A stretch of DNA of 64,000 nucleotides from a virus. The notes under the pieces are model-generated. The model made no database searches and was not told the origin of the DNA. It worked only from the letters and a program-made list of their open reading frames with translations. Where the stretch lies: positions 16,420 through 80,419 of IMG/VR virus record IMGVR_UViG_3300044766_000192. One strand, written 5' to 3'. Made by a program: the position numbers and the translations under genes. Positions 3,643 through 59,128 of this stretch are shown here, piece after piece; within the stretch, counting starts at the first letter, position 1; each line of letters opens with the position of its first letter.

Positions 3643-4080
3643 ATGCCAAGCATTCTTACGCTCGAAGGGCCGCGACTGCTCGGGTTCGGCACGCCGAAGC
3701 TCAAACTCCTACGCATGAACGGCGCGATCGGCGATGCGATCGGCTGCGCCGGTTGTCAGCCGCGAGGTTTCGGCGACGCCGCGAGTGACGATCTAGCACA
3801 CTTCAACAACGCGCTCACCGCGTACATGGCGCAGGTCGCCGCGGTTAATAAGTCGTCGACGTGGTTGGGCCTCATCGGCGGCGTTGCGGGCGTGGTCGCG
3901 GGTGTTCTGATCAGCCGCCGCGTAAGCAAGCGCAAATACGCCAAGCTTGGCGGCGCGGTCGCTGGCGGGCTCGGGCTCGGACTCGGGACGTTCTTCGCGA
4001 GCCGATCGATCATGATGCCGGACTTCGTTGCACCGCAGACGACGGCGCAACAGCTGCTCACAAAAGATCTGACGTTCTGA
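3643..4080 (+). CDS. Two-TM putative virion membrane protein
   Basis: MPSILTLEG leader; two Gly-rich TM helices separated by RRVSKRK. Confidence 0.7.
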   Translation: MPSILTLEGPRLLGFGTPKLKLLRMNGAIGDAIGCAGCQPRGFGDAASDDLAHFNNALTAYMAQVAAVNKSSTWLGLIGGVAGVVAGVLISRRVSKRKYAKLGGAVAGGLGLGLGTFFASRSIMMPDFVAPQTTAQQLLTKDLTF

Positions 4081-7682: not shown

Positions 7683-8015
7683 CTACGCGCGAGCCTTGCG
7701 CTTGCTGATTGCATAACCGATACCCCCGATCAAACCCAACGCGCCGACAAGAATCGCAAGCGGCTTCCAGCCGATGCTTTCGAGTGACGTCGCCATGCCG
7801 GCTTGAGCCGGCCCTACAGCCAGCGCTGGGTAGCAGGCGCCGTTTTGAAGGACATAGCCCGGTGCGCAAGTCCGCGTAACAGGATCTGGGTCAAATGCGA
7901 TTTCGCCACCTGTGGCGGTCAGTGCACAGATCGGATCGTTCGGGTCGTAGCTCGGGCTGCCTGGCGTACACGGATCATTCTCGTCGATGATGTCAGCCAG
8001 GCCGATCGTGATCAT
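7683..8015 (-). CDS. Cys-rich tail-anchored membrane protein
   Basis: MITIG leader, 4 Cys, TM ending LIGGIGYAISKRKARA; leaderless promoter. Confidence 0.75.
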   Translation of the reverse strand: MITIGLADIIDENDPCTPGSPSYDPNDPICALTATGGEIAFDPDPVTRTCAPGYVLQNGACYPALAVGPAQAGMATSLESIGWKPLAILVGALGLIGGIGYAISKRKARA

Positions 8016-20600: not shown

Positions 20601-21029
20601 CTATGTCGTGCCGATTGCGCCGAGATCGATGATGTCGAGGTACGCCACGCTAGAGCTGGCGTTGATCGTCGCCTCGACCGTTGGCTTGCCGTTGACGTCG
20701 ACGTTCGCATCGACCCAGACATCATCGGATCCCGAGCGTGGCGTCGTGATCATCTTCGCGCGCGGTGCGTTCTTGTTGCCGACGCTGGCGCCCGAGTTGT
20801 CTGCGCACAGGATGTCGCGAGCTTGATCCTGCGTGAGCGGCGTGCCGGCCGGTATGGTTCCGATACCGTCATCCTTTGCACGAGCAATCTCTCGAAGCTC
20901 TCCGGCGAGGGCATCGGTCTGGAGCTGGGCGTTCGAGATCGTTACCGTGCCGCCTCCCTCCCCGTCCGATGTGATGAGGTAGCGGAGATGATCGTGGCCC
21001 TGGAAAACGAGTTGCGCGCTGATGCCCAT
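20601..21029 (-). CDS. Putative structural protein, paralog 3 of triplet
   Basis: QGHDHLRYLI...AGELREIARA..DGIG..LTQ..AR.IL..D..GASVGNK.APRA. Confidence 0.8.
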   Translation of the reverse strand: MGISAQLVFQGHDHLRYLITSDGEGGGTVTISNAQLQTDALAGELREIARAKDDGIGTIPAGTPLTQDQARDILCADNSGASVGNKNAPRAKMITTPRSGSDDVWVDANVDVNGKPTVEATINASSSVAYLDIIDLGAIGTT

Positions 21030-21066
21030 AGTGATCTCCTTGTCTCCTTGAACGCTTGCGAGGTGC

Positions 21067-21501
21067 TTACGCGCCGATCCCGCCGATGAATTCTACGTCG
21101 ACGTAGCCGATCTCGCCGCCGGTTGCCGCGCCTTTGTTGACGACGATCGTCGGATTGCCACCACCGTCGACGTTTGCATCGACGTCCCAATCGCCGGCAC
21201 CGCGGCCCGTGACGATCAACGCAGCTCTTGGAGCCTTGTTGTTGCCGGCATTGGCGCCGAAATCATCGGCGCAGAGAATCGCGCGCGAATCGGCTTGCGT
21301 GAGCGGCGTGGCCGGCGGGAACAGCCCGAGCCCGTCGATCGCCGCGCGAACGATGGCGCGAAGCGGTCCGGCTTGCACGGCAGCGAGGAGCTGCGCGTTG
21401 CTGATGATCGTTTGCGCACCCCCCAAACCGGACCCGCATACGATCTTGAAACGGAGGTTGTTGTGCCCGGCGAACGCGAGTGAGGCGACTCCTGCGGTCA
21501 T
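21067..21501 (-). CDS. Putative structural protein, paralog 2 of triplet
   Basis: AGHNNLRFKI...AGPLRAIVRA..DGLG..LTQ...APRA...DANVD. Confidence 0.8.
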   Translation of the reverse strand: MTAGVASLAFAGHNNLRFKIVCGSGLGGAQTIISNAQLLAAVQAGPLRAIVRAAIDGLGLFPPATPLTQADSRAILCADDFGANAGNNKAPRAALIVTGRGAGDWDVDANVDGGGNPTIVVNKGAATGGEIGYVDVEFIGGIGA

Positions 21502-21503
21502 GA

Positions 21504-21944
21504 CTACGCTCCAATCCCGTCGATGAAGTCGACGTCGAGGTAAGTGACACCATCTTCGGTGCCGGTGATGATGATCTCCGGGTTGGCGCTGCCGTCGACA
21601 TTGACGTCAACCGAGAACCCGGCCGCGCTGCGCGGCGCGAGCTGAAGTCGCGCACGTGGAGCCTGACGACTACCGACGCTGGCGCCGGTATCGTCGGCGA
21701 CGAGGATGTCGCGGCACTCGGCCTGCGTTAGCGCAAGCGGTGCGACCGTTCCGATGCCGTCGACACCTGCACGAGCGATCTCGTGGATCGGTCCGGCGAG
21801 CGCATCGGTCTGAAGATCCGGCGTCGCGCCGCCCGTACTCGGGATGGTCACGGTACCACCGGGGGCTGTTCGACCGCCCTCCGTCGTGATCTTGTAGCGC
21901 AAGTTGTTGTGGCCCTGATAGACGAGCACGGCGGTAGTGGGCAT
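21504..21944 (-). CDS. Putative structural protein, paralog 1 of triplet
   Basis: QGHNNLRYKI...AGPIHEIARA..DGIG..LTQ...APRA; SD AAGGAG. Confidence 0.8.
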   Translation of the reverse strand: MPTTAVLVYQGHNNLRYKITTEGGRTAPGGTVTIPSTGGATPDLQTDALAGPIHEIARAGVDGIGTVAPLALTQAECRDILVADDTGASVGSRQAPRARLQLAPRSAAGFSVDVNVDGSANPEIIITGTEDGVTYLDVDFIDGIGA

Positions 21945-22024: not shown

Positions 22025-22774
22025 TCACTTGTGGATGTTGTTGCGCGTCCAATCGATCGCGGCTTTGCCGCCACCCGCAACGATGACCGCTGTGATGTCA
22101 GCGGGCCCGGGCCCCATCGGGCTCGACGTCGGGTAGCCCTTGAGCAAACCGCCGTCGGGATCTCCGCAGTACTGCCATCCCCACGGCGTCGGCATCGCCG
22201 CCGGATTCTGAAGCCTCCAGCCGATACGCTGATAAATCGTCGACGGGAGATCAGCTGCATAGTGAGCGACTTCGAGCAAGCCGCAGCCCATCGTCGCCTT
22301 CACGCCGCGCTCAGCAAGGTAGATGTTGCCGTAGAGCATTATCGATCGGCCAGTGACCGCACGGATCCTCGCGGCGAACGTCGAGACCGAGTCGATGATC
22401 TGTTGTGCGCTCGCGTTGGGCGGATTCTCCGCGCTCTCGACGTCGATCATCAATTGCAGATCCCCGGGGCCTTCACCGCCAGCCTCGGCGAGTAGCTGAA
22501 GCAGCTTGTTCGCCTGTAACAGCGGATCTTGATCGACGCGATGATAGTGATACGCCTGGCGGAAGAAATCGATGCCGTAGCGGGCTCCGGCAAGAATTCG
22601 TGCCGGCAGCCAGTGCTTGAGGAACCATTCTTTCTCGGACTGCCGCGGGTAGTACGTCCCCTCGGTGGCCTTCATCGAGATGCCGTGCCAGGGCGGGCCA
22701 GCGGCGACGAGCTTCGCGATGTCCACGACGGGCGACTTGGCATACACGTCGACGATCAGGGGATCTACGACCAT
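22025..22774 (-). CDS. GH25 muramidase (endolysin)
   Basis: MKATEG, AYHYH, MIDVE, AHY, WQY. Confidence 0.8.
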   Translation of the reverse strand: MVVDPLIVDVYAKSPVVDIAKLVAAGPPWHGISMKATEGTYYPRQSEKEWFLKHWLPARILAGARYGIDFFRQAYHYHRVDQDPLLQANKLLQLLAEAGGEGPGDLQLMIDVESAENPPNASAQQIIDSVSTFAARIRAVTGRSIMLYGNIYLAERGVKATMGCGLLEVAHYAADLPSTIYQRIGWRLQNPAAMPTPWGWQYCGDPDGGLLKGYPTSSPMGPGPADITAVIVAGGGKAAIDWTRNNIHK

Positions 22775-37769: not shown

Positions 37770-38480
37770 TTAGACGACCGAGCGTCGGATCAGGCCGTAG
37801 AAGTAGACCTTCTCGTCGGCGAAGTTCAGGTCGTCACCAGCATCCGATGCGTCCTGGGCGATCTGCAACGCCGCTTCCGGTTGGAAGCTGAACGTGTAGC
37901 CGAGGTTCTCACGCATCCACACCGGCAGCACGAGCGCGTTGCGATCACGCGGGCTCGGGATGCCGTTCTGGGCGATCTCGAAGAACGCGTTGGTCGAGAA
38001 CACCGCGAAGCCGTGACCCTGCGGATAGTCCTGGATCACACCCGACGTGTAGACCTTGCCGTTGTAGTTGTACTCCAGGAACGTCACGCGATCGACCTGG
38101 AACAACGTCACGAGCTGCGGAGGATCCGACAGCGCGCCATTGGTGTCCGGCAGCTGCGGATCGCTCTTGCCTTCGGCGGGCCGCATGACTCGCGTCATCT
38201 TGCAGCCGACGCCGTAGACGTACATCTCCCAGTCCTTCGGGAGACCCGCCGATCCCGCGCGCGGGATGTTCGTGTCGACACGCGTGCTCGTACGCGTGCC
38301 ACCAGGGATCTGCTGCGATCGTCCGGCCGAGAACGCCTCGACGGGGCCGTTCTGCTGGTTGTTGAACTGGACCGTCGAGTAGAGCTTGTCGTCGATCCAA
38401 TCCGAGATCTGGATCGTCTGCCCGTTGTCCATCGTGATCGTGGTTGTGCCTGGTGCTACGCCAACAGTTCCGCCTGCCAT
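37770..38480 (-). CDS. Putative large single-jelly-roll major capsid protein
   Basis: 236 aa; LYSTV...DTNIPRAG..GLP..WEMYVYG..LPV..REN..F..VYFYG, recalled as a vertical SJR capsid pattern; strong SD and its own terminator. Confidence 0.7.
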   Translation of the reverse strand: MAGGTVGVAPGTTTITMDNGQTIQISDWIDDKLYSTVQFNNQQNGPVEAFSAGRSQQIPGGTRTSTRVDTNIPRAGSAGLPKDWEMYVYGVGCKMTRVMRPAEGKSDPQLPDTNGALSDPPQLVTLFQVDRVTFLEYNYNGKVYTSGVIQDYPQGHGFAVFSTNAFFEIAQNGIPSPRDRNALVLPVWMRENLGYTFSFQPEAALQIAQDASDAGDDLNFADEKVYFYGLIRRSVV

Positions 38481-39223: not shown

Positions 39224-39412
39224 TCAGGGTTTTTTCGGGGCTGGGCAGCTGCCCTTGAACAGCCAGCCACTTCTTGTCTTCGCGCTCTTGCCGACGAAAC
39301 AAAGGCGGGCCCCTCGTTTCGTCCTCGTATTGAAAACGCACTTGCACTCGCCGATGCCGAGCTGCTTTCGGCCGGATTCGCCCGAGCCCGAGAGCGTCAT
39401 GATGCTCGGCAT
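39224..39412 (-). CDS. Basic Cys-containing microprotein
   Basis: SD GAGGAG; MPSIMTLSG leader. Confidence 0.65.
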   Translation of the reverse strand: MPSIMTLSGSGESGRKQLGIGECKCVFNTRTKRGARLCFVGKSAKTRSGWLFKGSCPAPKKP

Positions 39413-39422
39413 CGTGATCTCC

Positions 39423-39956
39423 TCAGTGCCAAGGCCAGCGCAGGCCCCGCCACATCATCATCGTGGTCTTGTCGATTCCCTCCTGCATGTTCGGCGGAAG
39501 GTTCGATGATCGGCCGTACGCCTGCGCGACCATCTGATGGATCTGCCGTTGCGGCCCGCCCCACGGACCGATGCCGGCAGCCGGGCCGTACGCACTTTGC
39601 TGTACAGCGACACCACCGCCCGGAACCGAAGAGTCGGCGAACCCCACCGGAGCGCTCGCTTGCATCTTGCGCATCCACGCGCGAGCCCGAACACCCGCCC
39701 ACCAATTCCGCAGCCGCGGAAATAGTGGAGCACCGAGCCCGCGCAGCACCGGGCGATAGACGCCGGGGCCTGACAACGTCATGCCGCTCTGCGGGCCGGT
39801 CGTGAACGCATTCGCGACCATCTGAACGTCTTGTCCGGGGTTGTAGCCAACCATCGGCGAGAGAACGCTCGTGCGCATCACGCGATCGGGCCGCATGAAG
39901 TGCGAGCCGCCGCCGTGCCGAGGAACTGCGTCACCGAGAAGTGAAATCTGGTGCAT
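39423..39956 (-). CDS. Putative virion protein
   Basis: MHQISLLG leader; internal LRGLG. Confidence 0.6.
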   Translation of the reverse strand: MHQISLLGDAVPRHGGGSHFMRPDRVMRTSVLSPMVGYNPGQDVQMVANAFTTGPQSGMTLSGPGVYRPVLRGLGAPLFPRLRNWWAGVRARAWMRKMQASAPVGFADSSVPGGGVAVQQSAYGPAAGIGPWGGPQRQIHQMVAQAYGRSSNLPPNMQEGIDKTTMMMWRGLRWPWH

Positions 39957-40114
39957 GAACGCGAGCATGCAGATCTGGATCTCGCCGGGCAACTAAGTTG
40001 TTTAGTGATTCTCGCCAGTTAAATAGACGCTGTGCTAACAACTGCGATGACGATTAAAACTAAATCAGTGAAGTTACGTGCTGAGTGTCAGAGCAATCTG
40101 ATAACGAATCCCCC

Positions 40115-42890: not shown

Positions 42891-43319
42891 CTAGCGACGG
42901 CGCTTTTTCTTGCCGCCGAGATGCTTCGCGAGGAACCAAGCACCCGTGCCGAGCGCCGCGACGATGCCGAGCTTGGGAACCCAGCCCCATGTATCTGGGA
43001 ACACGCCCGCGAGAGCTGGATATGGACGGAGACCTGGAGGATGCTTCCAACCGATCTTCCTATCAGACCCCCAGACGGTTCCCCCGCCGAGCGAGCTGAC
43101 GAAGCGCTTGAGCGGCGGATCGACCATCGTGATCCCGAGACCTGCAAGCCCGCGACGGTCGCTCGTTCCGGGGCCGAACGTCCCGAACACCGTCGGGTTG
43201 AGGGGCTGAACAGTCGTCTGCATCACGCCCTCGGGCATCACGAGATTCCGGTTGAGGTTGTAGTTGACGGTGGGATCTGGCGAGAACTGCCAGTCAGGAA
43301 TGATGCCGAGCGAGATCAT
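42891..43319 (-). CDS. Tail-anchored virion membrane protein
   Basis: MISLG leader; LAGLG; WGWVP-TM-KKKRRR. Confidence 0.75.
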   Translation of the reverse strand: MISLGIIPDWQFSPDPTVNYNLNRNLVMPEGVMQTTVQPLNPTVFGTFGPGTSDRRGLAGLGITMVDPPLKRFVSSLGGGTVWGSDRKIGWKHPPGLRPYPALAGVFPDTWGWVPKLGIVAALGTGAWFLAKHLGGKKKRRR

Positions 43320-43321
43320 GG

Positions 43322-43636
43322 TTAGCCCTTCCTTTTCTTGCGGCGCGGTGGGCGTACGATCACGCCAGTCATTCGACGATTGTACTCAGCGTATTCGCTG
43401 ATATCGGGTCGTGCAAAAGAGATAGCCGCCGACGCCGCATCCCGCATTGCACGAGGATCATCAACGGCGATTCGCCGATCGTGAGCACTGCGTGCACCTC
43501 CGCTGGGATTTCGAACGTAGACAATCTCGCAACGCTCGCCCTTCACAGTCGGGCAGATCTTCACCCTGTACTGATCCGTTCGATCGTTCCACGCGACGTC
43601 CATCTTAAGCCGCCCGCTGATAAAACGTTTCGCCAT
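43322..43636 (-). CDS. Basic protein
   Basis: MAKR...PPRRKKRKG. Confidence 0.7.
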   Translation of the reverse strand: MAKRFISGRLKMDVAWNDRTDQYRVKICPTVKGERCEIVYVRNPSGGARSAHDRRIAVDDPRAMRDAASAAISFARPDISEYAEYNRRMTGVIVRPPRRKKRKG

Positions 43637-43639
43637 AGC

Positions 43640-43897
43640 TCAAGCCCTCTTCGGTTTGCCGTAGCCTTCAGCCAGGGCGATGGTTGGAACGATCACCGGG
43701 AACAACCCACCGAGGATGAACCACAAAATCCCCCACCCGATCGACTTGTTGCGACGGTAGCCGTGGAAGCCGCTGACCGCCGCTGACGCCGTTGCGAGGT
43801 AGGCGAGCCACGGAATCTTTGGCGGCATCGGAACAGGCGGCATCGCAGCCGGATCGATCAACGAAGGATCGTCGCTGAGCCCGATGAGAGTGATCAC
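43640..43897 (-). CDS. Two-TM membrane protein
   Basis: MITLIG leader; HGYRRNKSIGWG. Confidence 0.7.
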   Translation of the reverse strand: MITLIGLSDDPSLIDPAAMPPVPMPPKIPWLAYLATASAAVSGFHGYRRNKSIGWGILWFILGGLFPVIVPTIALAEGYGKPKRA

Positions 43898-43919
43898 AGC
43901 GTCATCCTACACCAAAACG

Positions 43920-44636
43920 CTATGCGTCAAAATCTGTGATCCGGCCGACCGGCATCTCGACGCCGAAGTTGTTCTTACCGGGCAAGGTCGAATCGAGCGC
44001 GAGCCATTTCGTCGGCGCGACCTTGGGCAAGCCCGCCACCGCGTAGATGTGCGAATCTTCCCCGCGCCGTGTCTCGGCGACCACGCGCAAGCGCGGCGTG
44101 ATGCCGTTGAGTGCGAGCAGCGTCGCCGAAAGCGCAGAGTGATCGTCGCAGTCGCCACCACGAAATTCGTTGGTGCGCTTGGGGCTCTGGAACAGATCGA
44201 TACCTTCGACGGGACCGTTGCGGCCAAACTTCACCGGAGCGATGTCGCCCGTGTAGCGCACACGACCCTTGACGTAGTCATAGACGGCCTTGGCTTCGCA
44301 CGTCCCATCACGCTCGGGACAGTGCTGCGTGATCCCGAGCGCGAGCTTACGCATCTGCGGATCCTGCACGCCTTTGTAGACGAGATCTTGGATCGACGCG
44401 ACGCGCTCCTCGATCGGCATCAGGGCCGAGCGCCGATGCTCCGTCCGCATGCCGCCTGATTCAGTAGACCCAACGAGCGGCGCGGGCGAGTAGCGCTTGG
44501 TGACGAGCCGATACTTCGGCTTGAACAGCCCCAAGCCCGCGAGCTGCCGCTGGCGCCGGCCAAAATAGACCAAACCGCCGATGATCGCGATGGCGCCGAC
44601 CGCGATGCCGAGGCGCTTCTTGTTCCGAGACGTCAT
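43920..44636 (-). CDS. Membrane-anchored transglutaminase-like cysteine enzyme
   Basis: N-terminal TM; VRYTGD, GDCDD (Cys), SHIY (His), ALD (Asp). Confidence 0.85.
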   Translation of the reverse strand: MTSRNKKRLGIAVGAIAIIGGLVYFGRRQRQLAGLGLFKPKYRLVTKRYSPAPLVGSTESGGMRTEHRRSALMPIEERVASIQDLVYKGVQDPQMRKLALGITQHCPERDGTCEAKAVYDYVKGRVRYTGDIAPVKFGRNGPVEGIDLFQSPKRTNEFRGGDCDDHSALSATLLALNGITPRLRVVAETRRGEDSHIYAVAGLPKVAPTKWLALDSTLPGKNNFGVEMPVGRITDFDA

Positions 44637-44651
44637 CGTGGCTCTAGCCTA

Positions 44652-45470
44652 TCACGCGCGCTTGTGGTGGCTGAAGATGAGAGCGAGCGTACCGAGTAAC
44701 GCGAGGCCAGTCGGGACGTACCAATAACGAGCCGCTACTTCTGGAAGGGAAACACCCATACCGGATTTGCACTCGTTCGACCAGCACCACCACGGTCGCG
44801 GCGCCATGCAGCCGTCGCCTGTGGGCGTAGGGATCATTCCAGAAGGACACGTCATCGTCGACGGCGGTGTCATCGTCGACTGAGCGCCAGCGGTCGGTGG
44901 CGGGCACAGGCTGATGTCCTGCGCTGAGCTTCCATCTGGACACAAAACGAAAGACGCCGGTTGTTGATCCTGTGGCAACGGCGGTGGTGGTGGCTGATAG
45001 ATCGGCACTACGAGCGGCGGCGGCGTGGCAATCAGTGTCGAGGGATCAACGCCGAGATACGACGCGTAGCTCTGTACGAGCGCCTCTACGTTCGCTGCGA
45101 TCCAATCAGCATTGACGCTGACGTCGAACAGCGCGAACTGCGGGATCCCGGTGTTCGCCATAAACAGGATCGCGTTGATGGTCGTCTGTCCGATGTTGCC
45201 GTCGACACTGATCGACGGAAAGCTCTGACCTGCTGGAAGATTTGCAGCAACTGCCAGGTTGAGCAGCACTTGAAGCTGCTGGACGCAGTAGCCTGGCGTG
45301 CACGCGTAGCTCGGTGGCGGGGCGTAGCTCGTCGACGGTACGAGCGCGCTCGTACTTTGTGAAGCAGCCGCACGCGTTGGAAATGATCTCGTCGGCAATA
45401 GCGCTGTAGCCGGATCTGATGGATCTGCTGTGCCGCCTGGTGCCATCCCGAGGCTCGTAATCGAGAGCAT
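44652..45470 (-). CDS. Tail-anchored protein with peptidoglycan-binding-like and Cys/Pro-rich regions
   Basis: MLSITSLG; VQQLQVLLN..VDGNIGQTT; TM-HHKR. Confidence 0.75.
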   Translation of the reverse strand: MLSITSLGMAPGGTADPSDPATALLPTRSFPTRAAASQSTSALVPSTSYAPPPSYACTPGYCVQQLQVLLNLAVAANLPAGQSFPSISVDGNIGQTTINAILFMANTGIPQFALFDVSVNADWIAANVEALVQSYASYLGVDPSTLIATPPPLVVPIYQPPPPPLPQDQQPASFVLCPDGSSAQDISLCPPPTAGAQSTMTPPSTMTCPSGMIPTPTGDGCMAPRPWWCWSNECKSGMGVSLPEVAARYWYVPTGLALLGTLALIFSHHKRA

Positions 45471-45535
45471 GTTGCGAGCCTATCACGAGCACCGTGAAGC
45501 TCGCAGGCGTCTCGTACTTGGGATAGGGTAGGCTC

Positions 45536-46645
45536 ATGCTCTCGTTCTCGCTCTTGGGGGCGCTACCTACCGATGCGATCTCGCTCATCGCCCATCAGGC
45601 GACGTTTCTTCCGGCACGGCAGCCACTGACACCCGGCATGTGCTCGGCAGACGGGCAATTCATTTGGAACGGTCCTGACCCCGGCGGCTACTGGTCGCGG
45701 CTCGTAGCAGGTCAGCAATGCACGAGCCTCTCGACAGTTGGCCCAACGGTTCAGACGGAGCCCCAAGGCGGTATCGGTCCGACGTTGTGTTATGCGCGCG
45801 GGACCCACGACATCGTCGAGTGCCCACCTACGGATCCCAACGCCCCCGCGAACGTGCCAAAGCCCGTCGATTCAAAACCGATGAAGATGATCCAGGTCGG
45901 GCCGTTCACGATTCCCTATCAGGCGCAGCAATTCACGATCCACTGGAGCACTGCTCTGCCGTCGGACTGGCAGACCTTCATCAACAAAGAGCTAGCGCAC
46001 GACTGCGACAACTGCGTCGTCAGCTCGATGAAGGACGCGAGCGACATCCCCTACCTGAAAGATTTTCTCGGCGGGGGCATGCCGGCACAGTTCAACCAAG
46101 ATTTCGTCGTCGGTGCGAAGGGCACGATCCACGGACAGTTCACCGGTCAGATCACTGTCACCCCGGACACGGATCTGTCGAGCTACAACCCGATCGTCCT
46201 GACTCAGCACCCGGATACTGGCGAAGACTTCGGCATCTACATGGCGCTCGGTGTTCAAGATCTATCGCGCCCCTACGACGCAAAGACCAACCCTGCGGTC
46301 CTACAACTCCTGTGGCGAAAAGTTGAGCGGACCTGGTACGCCGCAGCGTGGAATTGGATCAAGCACATTGTCGCCAAGATCATTGAGATCGGCGGCGAGC
46401 TGATCTGCGGCTACGTCTGTACGCCAGATGCCGTCGACAAAGCCGTCAAAGCGGCGATGGCCAGCAAGAATCCGTACGCCGTGGCTGGAGCTGTGATCGG
46501 TTCTGCCATCGCCGTCGGAAACTGCACGTGTCCGCTTCCGCCGTTGGTGCCCGTCGTGCCGCCGCCGGCAAGCTACACGGGGTGGATCATCGCCGGGCTC
46601 GTTGCAGTAGGCGTCATCGGCGCAGTCGTATACCGGCAGTCATGA
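45536..46645 (+). CDS. Cys-rich tail-anchored protein
   Basis: MLSFSLLG; paired Cys; C-terminal TM. Confidence 0.75.
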   Translation: MLSFSLLGALPTDAISLIAHQATFLPARQPLTPGMCSADGQFIWNGPDPGGYWSRLVAGQQCTSLSTVGPTVQTEPQGGIGPTLCYARGTHDIVECPPTDPNAPANVPKPVDSKPMKMIQVGPFTIPYQAQQFTIHWSTALPSDWQTFINKELAHDCDNCVVSSMKDASDIPYLKDFLGGGMPAQFNQDFVVGAKGTIHGQFTGQITVTPDTDLSSYNPIVLTQHPDTGEDFGIYMALGVQDLSRPYDAKTNPAVLQLLWRKVERTWYAAAWNWIKHIVAKIIEIGGELICGYVCTPDAVDKAVKAAMASKNPYAVAGAVIGSAIAVGNCTCPLPPLVPVVPPPASYTGWIIAGLVAVGVIGAVVYRQS

Positions 46646-46657
46646 TAGGGTAGCCCC

Positions 46658-47152
46658 ATGCTCGCTTTCTCGTTGCTCAGCGGCCCGCTCACTGTTCGCC
46701 TGCTTGGGAACGCGTCCATCGGGTTTCGTGGTGTTCTCGGTAGCCTCGGCGCCGATGTCGATCAGAATGCCGGAGATGGGAGTAGCTGTCCCACAGAAGA
46801 ACCCGTGTGGAGCGACTTCTATGGATCATGCGTCGTCGCCTGCCCCGCGGGGCAGACATACGACAACAGCGGCAACTGTGTCGGCGGCGGCGGTGGTGGA
46901 GCACAGCCATCACAACCATCCAGCGGCGGATCATGGTGGTCACAGGCGATCACGGCGTTCACGAAGGGCGCGGCGCAGGGCGCACTCGCACCCAAGACGC
47001 CCACGCCGACGTACCCGAAGCCGATCGCCGTCGCGCCCTGGTACACGCAGTGGTGGGGCATCGGTGCGATTGCCGTCGGTGTACTCGGCGCCGGAGCGCT
47101 AATCTTGAGCCCAAAGAAGTCGACTGCTGTTGCGGGGCATCGTCGCAGGTAG
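46658..47152 (+). CDS. Cys-rich tail-anchored protein
   Basis: MLAFSLLSG; CP..C..CP..C; PWY-TM-KK..RRR. Confidence 0.75.
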   Translation: MLAFSLLSGPLTVRLLGNASIGFRGVLGSLGADVDQNAGDGSSCPTEEPVWSDFYGSCVVACPAGQTYDNSGNCVGGGGGGAQPSQPSSGGSWWSQAITAFTKGAAQGALAPKTPTPTYPKPIAVAPWYTQWWGIGAIAVGVLGAGALILSPKKSTAVAGHRRR

Positions 47153-47158
47153 GAAGCC

Positions 47159-47578
47159 ATGGGACTTTCACATCCCTACAACTATGAGCCGCTCTGGCAG
47201 GCACGCCGTGCAGAGCTTCGCGAAGCGCGCGAGCTTCACAACCGGACGCTCGGCGACGCCGCCAGCACCATCAGTCAGGCGATCAACGTCATCAACGATT
47301 CGGGTGAGTATCTGGGAACGATCCAGCACATCCTTGAAGATCCAGATCTGCCGGGGTTGATCCAACGTGTCGAGACGCTTCGCTCGTTCGAGCCTCCCGC
47401 GGATCCGTACGCGCCTGATTCGGGGCCGGGACCGGGCATCGGGCTGCACCAATTTCTCGGGCCGTTCGATCTCTATCTCAAGATGAAGCAGTATCCGATT
47501 CTCCCGTGGCTCGCTGTCGCTGGGATCCTGACGCTGATCGGCGGTGTCGGTTATGCCATCGGAAAGCGTCGAGGATAG
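47159..47578 (+). CDS. Tail-anchored protein
   Basis: PWL-TM-LIGGVGYAIGKRRG. Confidence 0.75.
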   Translation: MGLSHPYNYEPLWQARRAELREARELHNRTLGDAASTISQAINVINDSGEYLGTIQHILEDPDLPGLIQRVETLRSFEPPADPYAPDSGPGPGIGLHQFLGPFDLYLKMKQYPILPWLAVAGILTLIGGVGYAIGKRRG

Positions 47579-47803
47579 ATGCTAGCAATTTCTCTAACAC
47601 CCTACGTCGGCGTGGCCCCGAGCACGACGACGATGGCACTCGGTGCCGCAGAACGCCGCAAAATGTGGTGGAACCCGTACGTAGATCTTCCGACCCTTCG
47701 CGGGCTAGGTCAGACGAAGACTCGTTGGGATCTGTTCGCGCTCGCGTTCGGTGCCTCGCTTGCGAGCGCCGTCGGTTACGCGTACTGGCGCGGTCGCAAG
47801 TAG
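47579..47803 (+). CDS. Small tail-anchored protein
   Basis: MLAISLTPY; LRGLG; AVGYAYWRGRK. Confidence 0.7.
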   Translation: MLAISLTPYVGVAPSTTTMALGAAERRKMWWNPYVDLPTLRGLGQTKTRWDLFALAFGASLASAVGYAYWRGRK

Positions 47804-47904
47804 TTCGCGATGCGGATCGTTCAAGCTGATCTCGATCACAAGCAGCTCCAGCGTCTCAAAGCTCGAACCTGACATGAAGCCGGACAATCTAGTAGTCTGG
47901 ACAC

Positions 47905-48405
47905 GTGATCGCAACCCCGAGCCTCGTTTTCACGACTGGGGTTGATCCGTTCCAGCTGCTGATCAACGTCGGTACGTGCTCGGTAGCCGGGCATGCTGCG
48001 CTCGGACTCGGCGATCAGCTGCTCCATGCTTACGAAGACGGCGTCAAGCTCGAACCGCGCAGCACGTGGTTGGGCCGAGACCGCCAGCGGCTCATCGCCG
48101 AATTCTTGATCCTGCCCGACGTCGGCGACGGAATCGACTTCGCGTTGTCACAAGTCGGCAAAGGCTACGACGCGAGCGGTGTGGTTCGAGCAGCGATCTC
48201 GCGCCTCTTGCGATTGACGCTGTCACCGATCCAATATCTCGGGCCCGCATCGATGAAGAAGCACACGTGCGCGGCGTTTGTCATGCTGATCGACCCCTAT
48301 GGCCGGCGAATTCCCGAGTGGAGCGGCTTCGATCGCGCGACAATCGTACCAGGCGACCTGTTAGCCGCAGCGGCTATCGGGCCGAGCTTTCAGCGAGTCG
48401 CTTAG
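47905..48405 (+). CDS. Permuted papain-like NlpC/P60 (YiiX/YebB-like) enzyme
   Basis: GHAALG (His), GKGYD, TCAAFV (Cys), PGDL; TAGTCT-N6-GTG. Confidence 0.75.
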   Translation: MIATPSLVFTTGVDPFQLLINVGTCSVAGHAALGLGDQLLHAYEDGVKLEPRSTWLGRDRQRLIAEFLILPDVGDGIDFALSQVGKGYDASGVVRAAISRLLRLTLSPIQYLGPASMKKHTCAAFVMLIDPYGRRIPEWSGFDRATIVPGDLLAAAAIGPSFQRVA

Positions 48406-48427
48406 CTCTTGTGATAGGCTCAGCTCG

Positions 48428-49213
48428 ATGCTTGGAGTGATCCTCACGCCCTACCCCGAGATCGCCCAGGCGCGCGGCGGCCAAGGCAACTATCTCGAAC
48501 CCTACGATCCGTACTACAACCAGCGCGGCGAGCGCGGTTGGTACCACGATACGCAGCTCGGGGACATCCCGACCGATGCTGAGCTAGCTACGGCCTACGG
48601 CTATACGCCGGTCAACTCGGGCTGGATCAACGCACGCGAAGGCTACATTACCGGCCCGTGGCGCGGCGGTTGGGATCCGGCTGGCGCGTACGGCCCGCCG
48701 ACGAGCCTCTCTGGTCTCGGTCAGGCACCACTTGATCCTGCAAATGCCGCTGCTGCTGCCGTCGTCGCGCTCCAAGATCAGCAGAGCCGGGCGTTCAAGT
48801 TGATGATCATCTCGACGTCGGCCATCGCGATCTCCGCGTTGCTCGCAGCGTGGCGAACGGCGCGCGAGATCCGCAAAGACGCTAAAAGGATTCATCGAGA
48901 TGCGGCGAAGATCGAACACGAAGTCGAGAAGCCGCTTCGCCAGGCGCCAATCCCTACCTATCGAACGAGCGCCGACGTGCTCTCGCGCAAGAACGGATCG
49001 GGATGGCGGCTCGTGGGCTGGACCGTCGCGCGCACGCTGCTCATCGCGCCGCCGATGCTCGTTGTCGGTGTGCCGGGCAAGCAGGCGTGGCTCGGTGCGG
49101 GTCTGGCTTCGGGACTGATCTCGACGCTCGCGCTGCTCAGAATCTTCGATGCCGGAAAGAGTGGGCTCGGCGGGCGATCGACGCGAAGCCTGAAGCGTCG
49201 CTACGCACGTTGA
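48428..49213 (+). CDS. Multi-TM virion membrane protein
   Basis: MLGVILTPY; LSGLG; three hydrophobic segments; basic tail. Confidence 0.7.
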   Translation: MLGVILTPYPEIAQARGGQGNYLEPYDPYYNQRGERGWYHDTQLGDIPTDAELATAYGYTPVNSGWINAREGYITGPWRGGWDPAGAYGPPTSLSGLGQAPLDPANAAAAAVVALQDQQSRAFKLMIISTSAIAISALLAAWRTAREIRKDAKRIHRDAAKIEHEVEKPLRQAPIPTYRTSADVLSRKNGSGWRLVGWTVARTLLIAPPMLVVGVPGKQAWLGAGLASGLISTLALLRIFDAGKSGLGGRSTRSLKRRYAR

Positions 49214-49535: not shown

Positions 49536-51614
49536 TCACGCGGGCTCGGCGGTCGTGATTTGCGGTTTGGCCTCGTCCTCGTCTTCGTCTTCGTCGTCTT
49601 CGTCGTCTTCACCATCCTCTTCGGTACCTATGCTCATCAGCAGCTTGGTGACGTCATCACGATACGCCTGCGGCGCGTCAGGCAACAGCACGTCGATGAA
49701 GTCCGGGACCATGCCCTGAATCAGAAGATCGATCATCGCTGGAATCGGGATCTGGTTCTCCATGATGTAGAGCGCGGCCTGATGGACTGCCATCGCTGTT
49801 TGCTCGGGCACGACGCCATCGGGCATTTTTGAATTCTTTGGATCCATTCGTGGCGGATCCATCGACAGCGATTCGATCAATCGATCGACGCCACTACGCA
49901 GCTCGATGACCTTGGGCAAGAGCACACCGAACCATTCGACATCGGTACGGCCTTTGATTTTGCGCTGCGGATCATAGCCCGTTGCGACTACAGCAACCGG
50001 TATTGGTGCGACCGCTGCGATCGGTGCTCCATTGAGGCCGCCGCTCGGCGCGACCGGCGCAGAAGTTCGTGGCTGCTTCGGCGTGGCCCACGGTGGACGC
50101 GATGAAGCTGCGTGCCCCGCACCGTTGCCGTTGACCGGAACTGGCGCAGCTTGAATCGACGGCTGCGCGCCCGGCGGCGTTGCGCCGACGAACGTTCCGT
50201 CTTGGCGCTGCGCGACAGCGCCGCTCTGTTTGATCGTCGCTTCAACGCGTGCCATCTCAGCGAGGCGATCGTTCTGCGACTTGATCACGTCGGCTTGTGC
50301 GCGAGCCATCTCGGCTTGCGTGTGGAACCCAGCAACGGCTTCCTTGGTCTTGCCGCCCGTGTACTTCTCGACCATCTCCTTGACGCCGCCGCCGATGTCA
50401 CGCACGAGACCGATCACTTCGTTGCCGCCGCCCTGGTTGAGCTGCGCCGCGGTCTCGATCAGCGTGCGCTGGATCTGAAACATGTCCTGCCACGCGCGAT
50501 TCATCTGGCTCTGAACTTGATCGGCGCCATTCGAGCTGTCCTTCACGATCTGAAGCAGATCCTGTGGGCGCATGATGTTGGCCTGCACGCGCTCCATCTG
50601 CGCTTGGTTGCTGCGACCCATCTCCTTCATCGCCTCGACCTGTGCGCGCATTTGTTCTTGGAACATCATCACGACAGGATCGGGGCCGGCTTTGGCCGTC
50701 TCGCGCATGAGCAGCTCGTAGCGCGCGTTCGCGGCTTCGATTTGTCGACGCGTTTCTTCTTGGTTCGTGCGGATCAACTCGCGAAGCTCTTGCTCGCGCC
50801 GCTGGCGCTCGGAGTCAGCAAGCGCGTTTCGCATCTGCTCTTGGAGCATGCGATTCTGTTCACGGAGCTGTTCGATCGCGGGATCGTGCGTCGGCTGAGC
50901 CTTCACCAAATTCTGGCCCATCTGCTGGATGAGCTGTTGCAGCTCGGCGAACCGGCGATCGGACTCGGCCTTCATCTCGGCCGCGCGGCGCTCGAATTCG
51001 CGCTGTGCCGTTTGCTCGCGAGCTTGCGCGAGCTGCGCTTGCGTCTGTTCGAGCATGGCTTCGAGCCGTCGACGATCAGCATCAACCGCTGGGTTGTAGG
51101 ACTGGAAAGAGGGCTGTGCTTGAGGCATGTAACCCGGCTGCGGCTGCGGCATCGGTGGGAAGTAGCCGCCTTGTGGTTGCTGCTGCTGGTAGTACGACGC
51201 TGGAGGCAAAATCGCACCCCCGTTGAACTGTGCCATGGGCCTTGCCTGTTGCTGAGTTGTGATCGGAGCAGGGATAGCCGAGCTTGACGCGAGCAGCGGC
51301 GGGATGCGCTCGGGGAAGTCATGCGGGTTGTAGAATGCCGGCCACTCCATCATCTGGGAAGGTACCGACGAATCGACGATCGTGATCGCGTACTGGCCGC
51401 CACCCGACCACTCGTTGACGAGCCACTTCTCGGCGTCGCGGACCTGCTCTTTTGACCACCCCGTGCCCGGTGGATCGCCGTTCTCGGAGGGCGGGAGCGG
51501 GATCTCGTGGCGCATGTTGCCGCGAATCTTCTCGATTCGGATGGTGAACGGCTCGGCCATGGCTTCGAGCTTCGAGAGATCGAACTTCGGGGGCGGCTTG
51601 ATCATCTTGGACAC
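49536..51614 (-). CDS. Gln/Met-rich coiled-coil protein with acidic tail
   Basis: Globular N-terminus, Q/P-rich linker, long coiled coil; start GTG 51614 inferred from TACGTT-N7. Confidence 0.75.
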   Translation of the reverse strand: MSKMIKPPPKFDLSKLEAMAEPFTIRIEKIRGNMRHEIPLPPSENGDPPGTGWSKEQVRDAEKWLVNEWSGGGQYAITIVDSSVPSQMMEWPAFYNPHDFPERIPPLLASSSAIPAPITTQQQARPMAQFNGGAILPPASYYQQQQPQGGYFPPMPQPQPGYMPQAQPSFQSYNPAVDADRRRLEAMLEQTQAQLAQAREQTAQREFERRAAEMKAESDRRFAELQQLIQQMGQNLVKAQPTHDPAIEQLREQNRMLQEQMRNALADSERQRREQELRELIRTNQEETRRQIEAANARYELLMRETAKAGPDPVVMMFQEQMRAQVEAMKEMGRSNQAQMERVQANIMRPQDLLQIVKDSSNGADQVQSQMNRAWQDMFQIQRTLIETAAQLNQGGGNEVIGLVRDIGGGVKEMVEKYTGGKTKEAVAGFHTQAEMARAQADVIKSQNDRLAEMARVEATIKQSGAVAQRQDGTFVGATPPGAQPSIQAAPVPVNGNGAGHAASSRPPWATPKQPRTSAPVAPSGGLNGAPIAAVAPIPVAVVATGYDPQRKIKGRTDVEWFGVLLPKVIELRSGVDRLIESLSMDPPRMDPKNSKMPDGVVPEQTAMAVHQAALYIMENQIPIPAMIDLLIQGMVPDFIDVLLPDAPQAYRDDVTKLLMSIGTEEDGEDDEDDEDEDEDEAKPQITTAEPA

Positions 51615-51704
51615 GTGCGCCAACGTAGACGACTCAGATTTGATGGGCAAGAATCCCGGTTTTTTATTTGCCCAAGGTAACTGACCGCCTTACAAGCGTT
51701 ATCG

Positions 51705-54646: not shown

Positions 54647-55243
54647 ATGGTTCAGAGCATCATTCGGGCTAGGGCAGCCAAGGCTCTCCGAGCTGAAGCC
54701 TCCAAGCACGGGATCACGCTTAACGTTTTGATCTGCTTACTTGAACGACAGAGCTACAGCTGCGCGATCTGCACCCGAGAGCTGATCAGTGCTGTGTTCG
54801 GTGCCGATCAAGCGAATGCGATCGAGCTGAAACCCGTTGCGGTAAAGCGCCCGGCGCGACCGCGCGTCGACTACTGCCCGGAGACGGGCATCGTGCGCGG
54901 GATACTTTGTAGTTGGTGCCTCAGGCTCCTAGCCGATGAAATCAATCCGCTGGATCTGCTGAAAAAACAGATCCGCGTTGTTCCACGAACGCCGTGGGTG
55001 AATCCGAAACCGAACCGTCGACATCGCAAACGGAAGCACCGGAATTTCGTCATCCAGAAGACCCTAGCTCACGGGCGCTTCACTCCGCGAGACAATAGGA
55101 AGCGCCTTATAGATTACCTAGGGCAAGATCTCGACGAGAAGCTGATCTCAGCCCGGTGGCAAGAGCGACGGGAATCGCCGCGTGCGTTTGTTCCAACGAT
55201 AGAATCCGTAGCCGACTCCACCGACGACGATGCTTCCGAATAG
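54647..55243 (+). CDS. Degenerate EndoVII-like zinc-binding protein
   Basis: QSYSCAIC, VDYCPETGIVRGILCSWC (usual DH and N residues altered). Confidence 0.65.
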   Translation: MVQSIIRARAAKALRAEASKHGITLNVLICLLERQSYSCAICTRELISAVFGADQANAIELKPVAVKRPARPRVDYCPETGIVRGILCSWCLRLLADEINPLDLLKKQIRVVPRTPWVNPKPNRRHRKRKHRNFVIQKTLAHGRFTPRDNRKRLIDYLGQDLDEKLISARWQERRESPRAFVPTIESVADSTDDDASE

Positions 55244-56029
55244 CAGTGGCGCCCACTTCGCGAGCCACGCCGCGAAGCCGAAGGCTTGCTCGATGACGAT
55301 CAACGCGTCTTTGGCAAGCTCGATCGCGACGCCGCCGATCGCTTTGGCAACGCCCCACACGTCGGCGATGGCCGAGTCGTAGGCTCCGAGTGCGTCGAGC
55401 CAGAACGGTTTGCCGCACGCGGCGACGCCGAGCGCCTTCATCCCGTCGACGATCGTTTCCATCGCGGTGATGACCCAGACCCGAAGGCCCGGTGCCTTTA
55501 CCGCTACGCCGCGGGCTCGCGCGTCGCGCGTCGCGGCGAGATAGTCGATCGCTTGCTTGCCGAAGTCGATGAGCTGATCTCTGACGCTGTCAAGGTAACT
55601 CGTGTCGTACGTCGTCTGAAATTGCAGCGCTGTATTTTGCTGCACGTTGATCATGCCCATGACCTTGCCGACGATCGAGTCCAGGTCATCGGGCGTGTAG
55701 ATCCCCGTCGGGCGCCAGTTCTGTTTGAGGTCGTCGATCTTGGCTTGGTACGACGACGTATTCGGCACGCAGTTGGTCCCGGCGGCGGCTCCTGCTTCGT
55801 CCCAGCCGCCTGGAAACAAAGCCTGACAGTCGGACGAGCCGCCCCAGTATTGAGGGTCGGCGCACTTCTGAGCCAACGCCTGCGTGAAGAAATCGCTCTG
55901 GCCGAGCCCGCGCTTGATGAACTGAAAGCGCTTTGATTGCTTAAGGTAGATGCAACCTTGTGAGGTCGAGATGAAGTCTGGGGGGCATAGCGGGTTTACG
56001 CTACGCGCCGGTTTGGTTGAACGGGCCAT
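55148..56029 (-). CDS. Tail-anchored protein with helical ectodomain
   Basis: KRGLG; WAP-TM-VGGVGYGFYRWNKR; TGA-TACGCT-N6-ATG. Confidence 0.7.
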   Translation of the reverse strand: MARSTKPARSVNPLCPPDFISTSQGCIYLKQSKRFQFIKRGLGQSDFFTQALAQKCADPQYWGGSSDCQALFPGGWDEAGAAAGTNCVPNTSSYQAKIDDLKQNWRPTGIYTPDDLDSIVGKVMGMINVQQNTALQFQTTYDTSYLDSVRDQLIDFGKQAIDYLAATRDARARGVAVKAPGLRVWVITAMETIVDGMKALGVAACGKPFWLDALGAYDSAIADVWGVAKAIGGVAIELAKDALIVIEQAFGFAAWLAKWAPLLFGSIVVGGVGYGFYRWNKRTRRFPSLLPPG

Positions 56030-57451: not shown

Positions 57452-59128
57452 TCACCTCTCCTCAAACAACGTGTCGTTTGCTTTTACGGTCGCGCTTCCG
57501 GCATCGACGACAAGCTCCTTCGCCGCGAGCCGCGCCAGGTACGCATTGCGCGTCGAGACCTTGAATCCGGTGTTGTCATCGATATCGGGCTTCTCGATGC
57601 TGTTCGGGTAAGCGTTGATGAGCAGCTCGAACACGGCGCGCTCACCGGATGGAAGGCGTTCTATCCAGTAGTCGCGCAGCGCTTCACCGACGGGCAACGG
57701 CTCAGCATCCGGCATCGCGGCGATGCCTTCAGCGGTGGCTCGAATTCTGGCGCCCTCGTCAATCAGGTAGCCGCGATCTCGAAGCCGAGCGATGTAGGCA
57801 TTGCGCGTTGAGAGCTTGTAGCCCGCGAGCGTCGTTAGCTGCTTCTTGAACAGGCCATCAGCAAACTGAATTGCTGCGCGAAGCACGATGGCTTCACCGG
57901 GTGGTAATGGCTTGCTGTTGTCGATGATCTTCGGCTCGCGCTCGCGAAGGGCCTTGGCCGTTCCGGCAATCAACAGATCGATCGGCCGAACACCGTTCGT
58001 CGGCTTGTCCTCGTAGATCGGGCCCCGTGCAGCAATTCTGTGGAAATTCGTCACGCGATTGGTGATCTCTTTGATCGTCGTAACCTCGACACCGAGCATC
58101 GACGCGCGAGTCTCTAGTCGATTGGCAATCGATTCGAGCCGCTTGAGATCGGCGGGCTTGATCAGCTGCTTCTCGACGATCTGGATCTTCTCGGCCTTGT
58201 CGATGACGACAGGCTTCTTGCGAAGCTCCGTTTCGAGCTGCCTGACCTTGAGCTTCAGCTCGCCGACCGTTCGTAGCTCCTCTTCGGCTTCGCGGGGCAG
58301 GTTGTCAAGCTGGCCCAAGATCTTGCGGATGCGATCACTCGGTGGCGTCGGTGCAAGCGCGCGGGCGCCCGACTTCGGATGCGTCGTCTTCACCGGGCCG
58401 ATCTTGATCTTGTTGACGCCATTGGTGAGCGCGGGCCCGAACGCCCAGAATTCACCCGGTTCGAGGTTTCGCAGGTTCTGCGCGTCGGCGCGCGACGTAA
58501 AACCCAGCTCCTTGGCCGCGCGAACGATGTCGATGTCCTGCACGCAGCGCCCGACGAGCTTGTTGTTGCACTCGGCGGCAAGATCTTTGTGGACCTTCGA
58601 GATCCGTTGGGTCGCGCCGATCCCGCAGAACCCGCGCTTGCGGCCGAGCGTGAATAGATCGATCACGGCACTCGTGCTCTCACACTTCTCGCCTTCGGGC
58701 GCGAATTTGTGAACTTCGTCGACCACTACGATCAGCGACCGCCAGAGATCGCGCGGCGAGTTGACGAGCGCTTCGAGCGCTCGCTTGATGAACAGCCCGC
58801 GCTGCGTGCCCAGCTCGTAGATGTCGATGATCACCGACACGCCAAGCTCCAGGACCTTGCGCATGAGCAGAGCCGCGCTCTTGATGTCGGCGACGCAATC
58901 GCCGCCTTTGGGCGCCGCGAGGATGTAGTCGTACTTCTCGCGCAGCGTGTGAAACTCGCCCTCGACATCGAAGATGATCTGCGGTGCGAAGCTGTACGTT
59001 TGCTCGCAGATTCGGCGCACGCAGTAGCTCTTGCCGCCGCCAGAGTTGGCTTGGATGAGCATCCGCGATTCGATCAACTTCTCGACGTCGAGCGGGGCTC
59101 CGGTTCCTAAAGTCGGCTGTTTGGTCAT
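57452..59128 (-). CDS. HerA/FtsK-superfamily ATPase with C-terminal wHTH repeats
   Basis: ANSGGGKS, DVEGEF, VVVDEVH, GRKRG, ATQR; duplicated GY/FK.STRNAY. Confidence 0.85.
   Translation of the reverse strand: MTKQPTLGTGAPLDVEKLIESRMLIQANSGGGKSYCVRRICEQTYSFAPQIIFDVEGEFHTLREKYDYILAAPKGGDCVADIKSAALLMRKVLELGVSVIIDIYELGTQRGLFIKRALEALVNSPRDLWRSLIVVVDEVHKFAPEGEKCESTSAVIDLFTLGRKRGFCGIGATQRISKVHKDLAAECNNKLVGRCVQDIDIVRAAKELGFTSRADAQNLRNLEPGEFWAFGPALTNGVNKIKIGPVKTTHPKSGARALAPTPPSDRIRKILGQLDNLPREAEEELRTVGELKLKVRQLETELRKKPVVIDKAEKIQIVEKQLIKPADLKRLESIANRLETRASMLGVEVTTIKEITNRVTNFHRIAARGPIYEDKPTNGVRPIDLLIAGTAKALREREPKIIDNSKPLPPGEAIVLRAAIQFADGLFKKQLTTLAGYKLSTRNAYIARLRDRGYLIDEGARIRATAEGIAAMPDAEPLPVGEALRDYWIERLPSGERAVFELLINAYPNSIEKPDIDDNTGFKVSTRNAYLARLAAKELVVDAGSATVKANDTLFEER

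Follow-up and report, generated by a model that had tools for sequence, protein, structure and literature searches.

A short N-terminal peptide on tail-anchored proteins of an uncultured, apparently tailless bacterial virus: a candidate tag for docking to a jelly-roll shell

Background

In phage T4 the internal proteins IPII and IPIII carry the capsid targeting sequence (CTS), which is enough by itself to bring foreign proteins into the particle and is afterwards removed by the prohead protease gp21 (PMC9958956). In vaccinia virus the N-terminal tail of A17 binds the D13 jelly-roll scaffold, and later proteolysis releases the lattice (PMC8971458). These two systems appear to be the closest known analogues of the element described here, a short N-terminal peptide (the leader, or tag) borne by 9-11 unrelated proteins of an uncultured, apparently tailless 80-kb bacterial virus. 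The window, that is, the whole stretch of DNA that was analysed, is 64 kb of the single 80,419-bp virus record IMGVR_UViG_3300044766_000192; it has 60% G+C and contains 112 genes by a codon-usage gene call.

The tag exists, is selected as a peptide, is associated with a C-terminal membrane anchor and is conserved across the clade. To judge from sequence, this short hydrophobic peptide probably helps to load or tether proteins in the particle. Little is understood of how membrane-containing bacterial viruses choose the proteins of the virion membrane and tie that membrane to the shell. A portable N-terminal tag would supply a testable rule here and would allow the virion proteomes of a widespread uncultured virus group to be predicted from their genomes; a tag that worked like the T4 CTS would also be a means of loading foreign proteins into particles. 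No description of such a tag in bacterial tailless viruses was found in the searchable literature, nor was anything relevant found there on a described virus group of this kind.

Leader-bearing genes and their start codons

An earlier note on this DNA had proposed a modular code in which a shared leader and a C-terminal anchor are attached to varied cargo. The eleven N-termini that it quoted are all present, at the positions and on the strands given below, and so are all the C-terminal tails. The leader-bearing genes (aa, amino acids; TM, transmembrane; SD, Shine-Dalgarno) are:

3643-4080, plus strand: 145-aa protein, MPSILTLEG; glycine-zipper TM segment, not at the extreme C-terminus
7683-8015, minus strand: 110-aa protein, MITIG; anchor ending in GGIGYAISKRKARA
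39224-39412, minus strand: 62-aa basic Cys protein, MPSIMTLSG; without TM segment
39423-39956, minus strand: 177-aa protein, MHQISLLG; without TM segment
42891-43319, minus strand: 142-aa protein with N-terminus MISLGIIPDWQF; TM segment followed by KKKRRR; SD-led start
43640-43897, minus strand: 85-aa two-TM protein, MITLIG; GTG start
44652-45470, minus strand: 272-aa protein, MLSITSLG; P/S/T linker, weak PG_binding_3-like domain, Cys-rich segments, TM segment followed by HHKRA
45536-46645, plus strand: 369-aa Cys-containing protein, MLSFSLLG; C-terminal TM helix; leaderless start
46658-47152, plus strand: 164-aa protein, MLAFSLLSG; small Cys-rich beta module, then PWY, TM segment and basic tail
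47579-47803, plus strand: 74-aa anchored protein, MLAISLTPY continuing as VGVAPSTTTM; anchor AVGYAYWRGRK
48428-49213, plus strand: 261-aa multi-TM protein, MLGVILTPY; basic tail KRRYAR

The start codons are supported by the spacing of promoter boxes and by orthologues from 17 related loci, which start at the same place. Seven of the eleven genes begin 6-7 nucleotides (nt) downstream of an extended -10 box, TGnTAGGnT, which leaves no room for an mRNA leader. The arrangement is seen twice in one divergent region:

45471-45535, strand not applicable: divergent intergenic region with two extended -10 boxes, TAGGCT and TAGGGT, each 6 nt before an ATG

Both divergent mRNAs must therefore be leaderless. 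The tag is also found on SD-led genes (those starting at 43319, 47579, 3643 and 39412). The same start positions are used in the orthologues of L001, a syntenic relative with 40-95% protein identity, and of 15 further related contigs; the L001 orthologues begin MHQISLLG, MIQLG, MISLTG, MLSITSLG, MLSYSLTG, MLAFSLLSG, MLALLEVPTFTPY, MLGVILSPY and MPSILTLSG. A public gene call for the 44652-45470 open reading frame (P0007, 205 aa) begins 67 codons too late, downstream of the conserved MLSIT, so that the leader is missing from the database annotation. Immediately ahead of the MHQISLLG start, 39957-39968 on the minus strand encodes an in-frame ATGCTCGCGTTC (MLAF); in L001 these bases are out of frame, the nucleotides being kept and the reading frame not.

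Enrichment of the leader and selection on the peptide

The cross-genome sample comprised 18 genomes, 613 proteins and 311 families; the 15 further contigs were obtained through the capsid candidate described below, their genes and starts were called by rule, and TM segments and anchors were assigned by hydropathy. An M[LM] start is found in 37% of the proteins that combine a C-terminal TM helix with a net basic tail and in 9% of all the others (p=1e-13); at the level of families it is 34% vs 8% (p=9e-6). Among genes with a leaderless promoter M[LM] is found in 45% of the anchored and 7% of the non-anchored proteins, and among genes without one in 34% vs 9%; the association of M[LM] with the anchor is independent of the leaderless promoter. 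In the window, a regular expression fitted post hoc to the quoted list matched 9 of the 112 N-termini, where 0.41 would be expected (14 matches at 23,012 internal positions).

A single uniform leader is ruled out by an unsupervised all-against-all comparison of N-termini and by the family alignments. Three or four sub-motifs are seen instead: Phi-[ST]-L-x-G (Phi, hydrophobic residue), x-LG-Phi-Phi-P, MPSI.TL.G and LTPY/VGVAPGTTT. The top unsupervised pair is MPSILTLEG (3643) with MPSIMTLSG (39412), from two unrelated proteins, followed by MLAISLTPY/MLGVILTPY, MLSFSLLG/MLAFSLLSG and MITIG/MITLIG. Enrichment over background, which the proposed code called for, is borne out by the M[LM]-anchor link and by the post hoc expression, and only weakly by the unsupervised test, which stayed near background. 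Paralogy of the leader-bearing proteins is rejected, none being detectable by all-against-all BLASTP, in which only C-terminal anchor or TM segments match. The only significant tail match joins the 23-aa C-terminus of the 7683-8015 protein to that of 47159-47578 (56% identity, E 2e-4); the anchor match between 45536 and 46658 has E 0.066.

In each family the N-terminal element persists at identities of 35-95%, in many cases as an island ahead of a variable linker. MLSIT is invariant in four homologues of the 272-aa protein (50-70% identity), in which the next ~50 residues are hypervariable. M1 and L2 of the 369-aa protein are invariant in six homologues and the rest of its leader decays with distance. 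In the 164-aa family (22 representatives) distant members start MM/MI/MF-Phi-Phi-G (MMLMGF, MIFMGL, MMIMGL) and continue with GLGD. The 142-aa family keeps LG-Phi-[IV]-P-x-W-Q-F in 11 genomes behind a variable extreme N-terminus, the 261-aa family keeps M-x-LG-[IV]-[IV]-L-x-P-Y-G in 10, and orthologues of the 177-aa protein start M-x-x-I-Phi-RHGG. The 62-aa family shows M-x-x-[IV]-[MF]-T-[LI]-x-G in 15 genomes; T6, L7 and G9 are kept with varied codons, GGC, GGT or GGA for the invariant Gly and CTC, CTA, TTG or CTT for Leu. The protein encoded at 3643 had no match in five related virus records. Throughout the orthologue comparison conserved leader residues are encoded by varied codons. The earlier note's expectation that the leader is conserved in homologues holds across the related genomes, and the free codon variation, the tag on SD-led genes and the association with or without a leaderless promoter together indicate selection on the peptide.

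In an AlphaFold2 model of the 164-aa protein, residues 1-39 are a low-confidence coil with a predicted local distance difference test score (pLDDT) below 50, and the TM helix spans residues 132-150. A disordered N-terminus of this kind is the appearance expected of a linear docking motif. In a related genome, L009, two unrelated genes (L009:6301 and L009:8516, both on the plus strand) start with MMYYRH; their codons are partly different, their upstream DNA is unrelated, and their orthologues elsewhere start differently.

C-terminal anchors and cargo

A tail-anchor architecture, with a single TM helix no more than about 45 residues from the C-terminus, is found in 14 proteins of this genome and 134 proteins of the 18 genomes by hydropathy. 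In the anchors an aromatic/Pro boundary leads into a TM helix, which a basic tail follows; the juxtamembrane residues are generally rich in W, Y and P, and no common motif before the C-terminal helix was seen across families. Such a boundary, helix and basic tail are typical of any bitopic or tail-anchored protein (positive-inside rule, interfacial aromatics), and the anchor half of the proposed code is ordinary tail-anchor architecture. Three proteins outside the leader list have TM segments of interest:

6617-7675, minus strand: 352-aa SGNH/GDSL-like esterase with an internal TM segment ending in VVGYALSALKKR; Pfam match below gathering score
47159-47578, plus strand: 139-aa protein without leader (MGLSHPYNY); anchor ending in GGVGYAIGKRRG
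55148-56029, minus strand: 293-aa protein without leader; anchor VGGVGYGFYRWNKR

The recurring GYA of the earlier note is real at the TM/basic boundary, where 6 of the 14 occurrences of GY[AG] in the proteome lie, but it is confined to two or three families. It is kept in the 47159 family, six orthologues of which conserve [VI]GY.[IL]G[KRH]R, and partly in the 47579 family; orthologues elsewhere lack it. Both this count and the family-specific occurrence in relatives rule GYA out as a general code. The analogy with CTERM sorting signals finds no support, the anchors being without a common signature motif and resembling ordinary tail anchors.

Family scans with Pfam, PHROGs or NCBIfam covered 38 different window proteins, a part of the proteome. 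The cargo list holds only in part: the SGNH and PG-binding matches are weak, and the SLT domain was not found by Pfam. The sole clear wall hydrolase is the following:

22025-22774, minus strand: GH25 muramidase (PF01183, E 4e-9); leaderless start, neither tag nor anchor

It is probably a soluble endolysin. What stands of the modular code is the link between N-terminal tag and C-terminal anchor on unrelated proteins, in the statistics and in clade-wide conservation. The tag is also present on two TM-less proteins (39224-39412 and 39423-39956), both of which adjoin the capsid gene, and is thus not purely a membrane code. The smaller of them, the 62-aa protein, sits between capsid-module genes and shares with its 15 relatives a conserved CKCV...RTKR...LCFVGK...RSGW; from its sequence it is a candidate DNA-binding core protein.

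Capsid candidate and shared N-terminal arm

The capsid gene of this module is a candidate:

37770-38480, minus strand: 236-aa candidate jelly-roll major capsid protein with N-terminal arm MAGGTVGVAPGTTT

Metagenomes contain 453 close homologues of it, and the contigs that carry them reach about 180 kb. Its AlphaFold model (pLDDT 56, predicted template modelling score 0.58) has as its best fold matches SPMV, a nanovirus, SPV1, HHIV-2, P23-77 VP17 and HCIV-1. Almost all of the best matches are viral jelly-roll capsid proteins, at Z scores of 7.8 or less, below the level that is trustworthy alone. The 74-aa anchored protein carries VGVAPSTTT, a near-copy of VGVAPGTTT in the N-terminal arm of the capsid candidate. 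The peptide or its near-copy is kept in seven genomes (the window, L001, L002, L003, L004, L008 and L013), and both copies are conserved, which suggests that N-terminal peptides are reused as connectors.

The transglutaminase-like enzyme

One gene in the middle of the membrane-protein cluster encodes the only cysteine enzyme recognised among the scanned proteins:

43920-44636, minus strand: transglutaminase-core cysteine enzyme with N-terminal TM anchor (Pfam PF01841, 26.1 bits)

The gene is present in 17 of 17 related genomes. C163, H196 and D215 do not vary, and the enzyme's own TM helix is followed by a nearly invariant LG. In most genomes the protein has a length of about 230-250 aa; in L001 (L001:7476-9173) and L013 it belongs to a longer one of about 550-565 aa. 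No sequence homologue was found among PDB structures, and NCBIfam gave no family. Its sequence makes it a candidate trimming protease or a candidate wall or entry hydrolase.

A docking tag and its rivals

The reading preferred here, tentatively, is that the short N-terminus is a disordered docking or incorporation tag which would tie tail-anchored and core proteins to the jelly-roll shell. In form the tag is Met-Leu, Met-Met or Met-Ile, then a few hydrophobic or Ser/Thr residues and usually a Gly, placed at the free end of a disordered N-terminal tail. Most carriers are tail-anchored, with one C-terminal helix, a basic tail and no signal peptide, so that the N-terminal domain would stay on the cytoplasmic face, the side that would meet the assembling shell. 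There the shell or an assembly factor would offer one site, common to the tags, for binding, and a tagged anchored protein would become a two-point tether from shell to inner membrane. Tagged non-membrane core proteins would be brought in by the same route, and the membrane-tethered Cys-His-Asp enzyme may later trim the tag. We infer both a virion membrane and the presence of these proteins in it. The docking reading draws on the positional enrichment in this genome, on the enrichment of M[LM] in anchored proteins and its independence of the promoter, on the varied codons, the conservation islands, the disorder and the missing signal stretches; also on the tagged TM-less neighbours of the capsid gene, the copy of the capsid arm, the MMYYRH pair, the conserved enzyme and the T4 and vaccinia precedents. 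A further point in its favour is that leaders of unrelated anchored proteins resemble one another slightly more inside a genome than across genomes (P=0.02).

Several points weigh against it. The tag motif is loose, and only about one third of anchored proteins start with M[LM]. The enrichment of Gly-ended motifs near the N-terminus of anchored proteins is no more than 2-3-fold. The unsupervised comparison came out barely above background and its controls, which makes the leader a loose class. Every family has a version of the tag to itself, a pattern that separate roles, one for each family, could also produce. The closer likeness of leaders inside a genome is a 2-SD (standard deviation) effect that composition could explain. 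The Cys-rich and wall-binding cargo would be better suited to an extracytoplasmic site and fits poorly with a cytoplasmic N-domain, and moving the basic C-tail across the membrane would conflict with the positive-inside rule. The fold assigned to the capsid candidate is a weak match (pLDDT 56, Z below 8), and both the place of these proteins in the particle and their binding are predictions.

The strongest of the rival explanations, although unlikely, is that the N-termini have no common function: they would be N-terminal strands proper to each family, made to look alike by a hydrophobic and Gly bias in small membrane-associated proteins and by post-hoc grouping. That would account for the near-background unsupervised test, for the three or four distinct sub-motifs, for the 142-aa family, which conserves the downstream LGxxPxWQF while its extreme N-terminus varies, and for the distant 369-aa homologues, which keep only ML. 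It does not sit well with an M[LM]-anchor link that holds by family, with MPSI.TL.G and MMYYRH each on two unrelated proteins, or with a tag that lies in a region modelled as disordered and not in a fold.

Somewhat less likely is a leader that serves as a propeptide only, cut at or after the Gly by the viral transglutaminase-like cysteine protease for activation or release and without a targeting role. Most leaders do end in Gly, with a sharp fall of conservation beyond it in several families, but in the 142-aa family and one further family conservation continues past the Gly, and no one cleavage consensus suits all leaders. The consensus for maturation of adenovirus-type precursor proteins is (M/I/L)-X-G-X-G or (M/I/L)-X-G-G-X. 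In the present sample [LIMF]xGxG occurs within residues 1-25 of 10% of anchored proteins vs 4% of others (p=0.006), and is absent from most window leaders. The Cys-His-Asp enzyme, with its LG after the TM helix, is there in every relative to do the cutting; it could equally be a wall hydrolase used at entry, and a propeptide of 5-9 residues without another role is hard to explain.

The same low standing is given to a membrane-biogenesis signal, by which the N-terminus would direct insertion or topology, pre-targeting to an insertase, or unconventional export of the N-domain. The strong association of the tag with a C-terminal anchor would follow from it, as would the N-termini of anchored proteins, which are more hydrophobic and less charged (p about 1e-5), and the Cys-rich, wall-binding or wall-cutting modules of the cargo, which usually act outside the cytoplasm. 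The two tagged TM-less proteins speak against such a signal, and so does a leader much shorter than any Sec, Tat or SRP (signal recognition particle) signal. In Sec, Tat and lipoprotein signal peptides the n-region is basic, the hydrophobic core runs to 7-15 or more residues, and an AxA site or a lipobox Cys is present. The leaders, of 5-9 residues, carry neither charge nor Cys, and an N-terminal signal-like stretch (any 15 residues with a mean hydropathy of at least 1.8) is found in only 3 of the 134 anchored proteins and missing from 131. A Sec, Tat or lipoprotein signal is ruled out on these grounds, as the earlier note had held for Sec. We know of no system that uses such a short N-terminal membrane-insertion signal.

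A nucleotide-level origin, in the form of a first-base constraint of leaderless mRNAs (promoter escape, 70S initiation), would fit the -10 boxes 6-7 nt ahead of seven leader genes and the over-representation of ATGCTCKCG in the window (11 copies vs 3.9 expected), but is extremely improbable, being largely refuted and in effect ruled out by codons that vary freely at conserved residues, by tagged SD-led genes and by the promoter-stratified test, in which leaderless genes start with M[LM] in 7% of cases without an anchor vs 45% with one.

Genome context

No tRNA genes were detected in the 64-kb window. HK97 capsid, portal and tail-tube families had no match among the 38 scanned proteins, and a single weak "tail protein" match was seen (phrog_4577, 38 residues, E 3.5e-5). 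The packaging motor has a candidate:

57452-59128, minus strand: 558-aa HerA/FtsK-type ATPase (PF01935, E 2e-10)

This ATPase also matches phrog_2666, annotated as terminase large subunit (E 1.5e-14), and its sequence makes it the candidate motor. With the weak jelly-roll fold matches and the many tail-anchored proteins it makes a tailless jelly-roll virus with a membrane plausible.

Two further loci on the minus strand were recorded. At 20601-21929 three tandem paralogues of 141-144 aa, 47-49% identical and beta-rich, end in ...G[AG]IG[AT] and have no family match. At 49536-51650, adjoining the membrane-protein cluster, a 704-aa protein combines a Gln/Pro-rich region with a long coiled coil and has an acidic tail; L001 and L002 keep this protein, which may be a scaffold or tape-measure-like factor. 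Searches of viral contigs with the 369-aa protein and then with its alignment, of genome contigs with the alignment A2, and of phage records with protein P0009 gave no match.

Comparison with known systems

The anchor half invites comparison with PEP-CTERM/exosortase, LPXTG/sortase and GlyGly-CTERM/rhombosortase, in which a TM helix and a basic cluster likewise stand at the C-terminus of diverse cargo. In those systems a signature motif immediately precedes the helix and processing falls to a dedicated enzyme, whereas the anchors of this virus are without a common pre-helix motif and have GY[AG] at the helix end in few families. No exosortase, sortase or rhombosortase was seen among the 38 scanned window proteins; the whole proteome was not searched for them.

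The single-jelly-roll membrane viruses resemble this virus in having a HerA/FtsK-type ATPase and many small membrane proteins, and the capsid proteins of P23-77, HHIV-2, HCIV-1, SH1 and SPV1 are among the best fold matches of the capsid candidate (Z below 8). The genomes of these five viruses are several-fold smaller, and to our knowledge no shared N-terminal tag has been described on the membrane proteins of this group.

The T4 CTS is alike in being an N-terminal peptide of about 10 residues on otherwise unrelated virion proteins, the virion location being a prediction in the present case. T4 is a tailed HK97-fold phage which takes soluble cargo into a scaffolding core and cleaves at L/I-x-E, and its targeting sequence is unrelated; the cargo here is mostly tail-anchored membrane proteins of a candidate tailless jelly-roll virus. 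Only one leader has L-E (TLEG, 3643), and leaders end in Gly. No prohead-protease family matched among the 38 scanned window proteins, the whole proteome not having been scanned.

The likeness to vaccinia virus is of another kind. There too the N-terminal tail of a membrane protein couples the membrane to a jelly-roll shell, as the tag would do here, and here too a cysteine-enzyme gene lies among the membrane-protein genes. Vaccinia, a eukaryotic virus, has a single main adaptor, builds its scaffold from a double jelly roll and uses a clan-CE (adenain/Ulp-like) cysteine protease that cuts at AG-X, whereas this virus has a dozen or more unrelated tagged proteins, a candidate single jelly roll and a transglutaminase-core enzyme. 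The parallel can be taken further: large tailless jelly-roll bacterial viruses might have a tail-anchor sorting system of their own, in which the tag docks a dozen or more unrelated membrane and core proteins on the lattice, the membrane-tethered transglutaminase-like protease trims it, and the tag co-evolves with its docking site between clades, as a counterpart of poxvirus A17-D13-I7. This fuller scheme is doubtful, more so than docking itself. A working parallel with poxvirus A17/D13 would bear on the origin of the coupling between jelly-roll shell and membrane.

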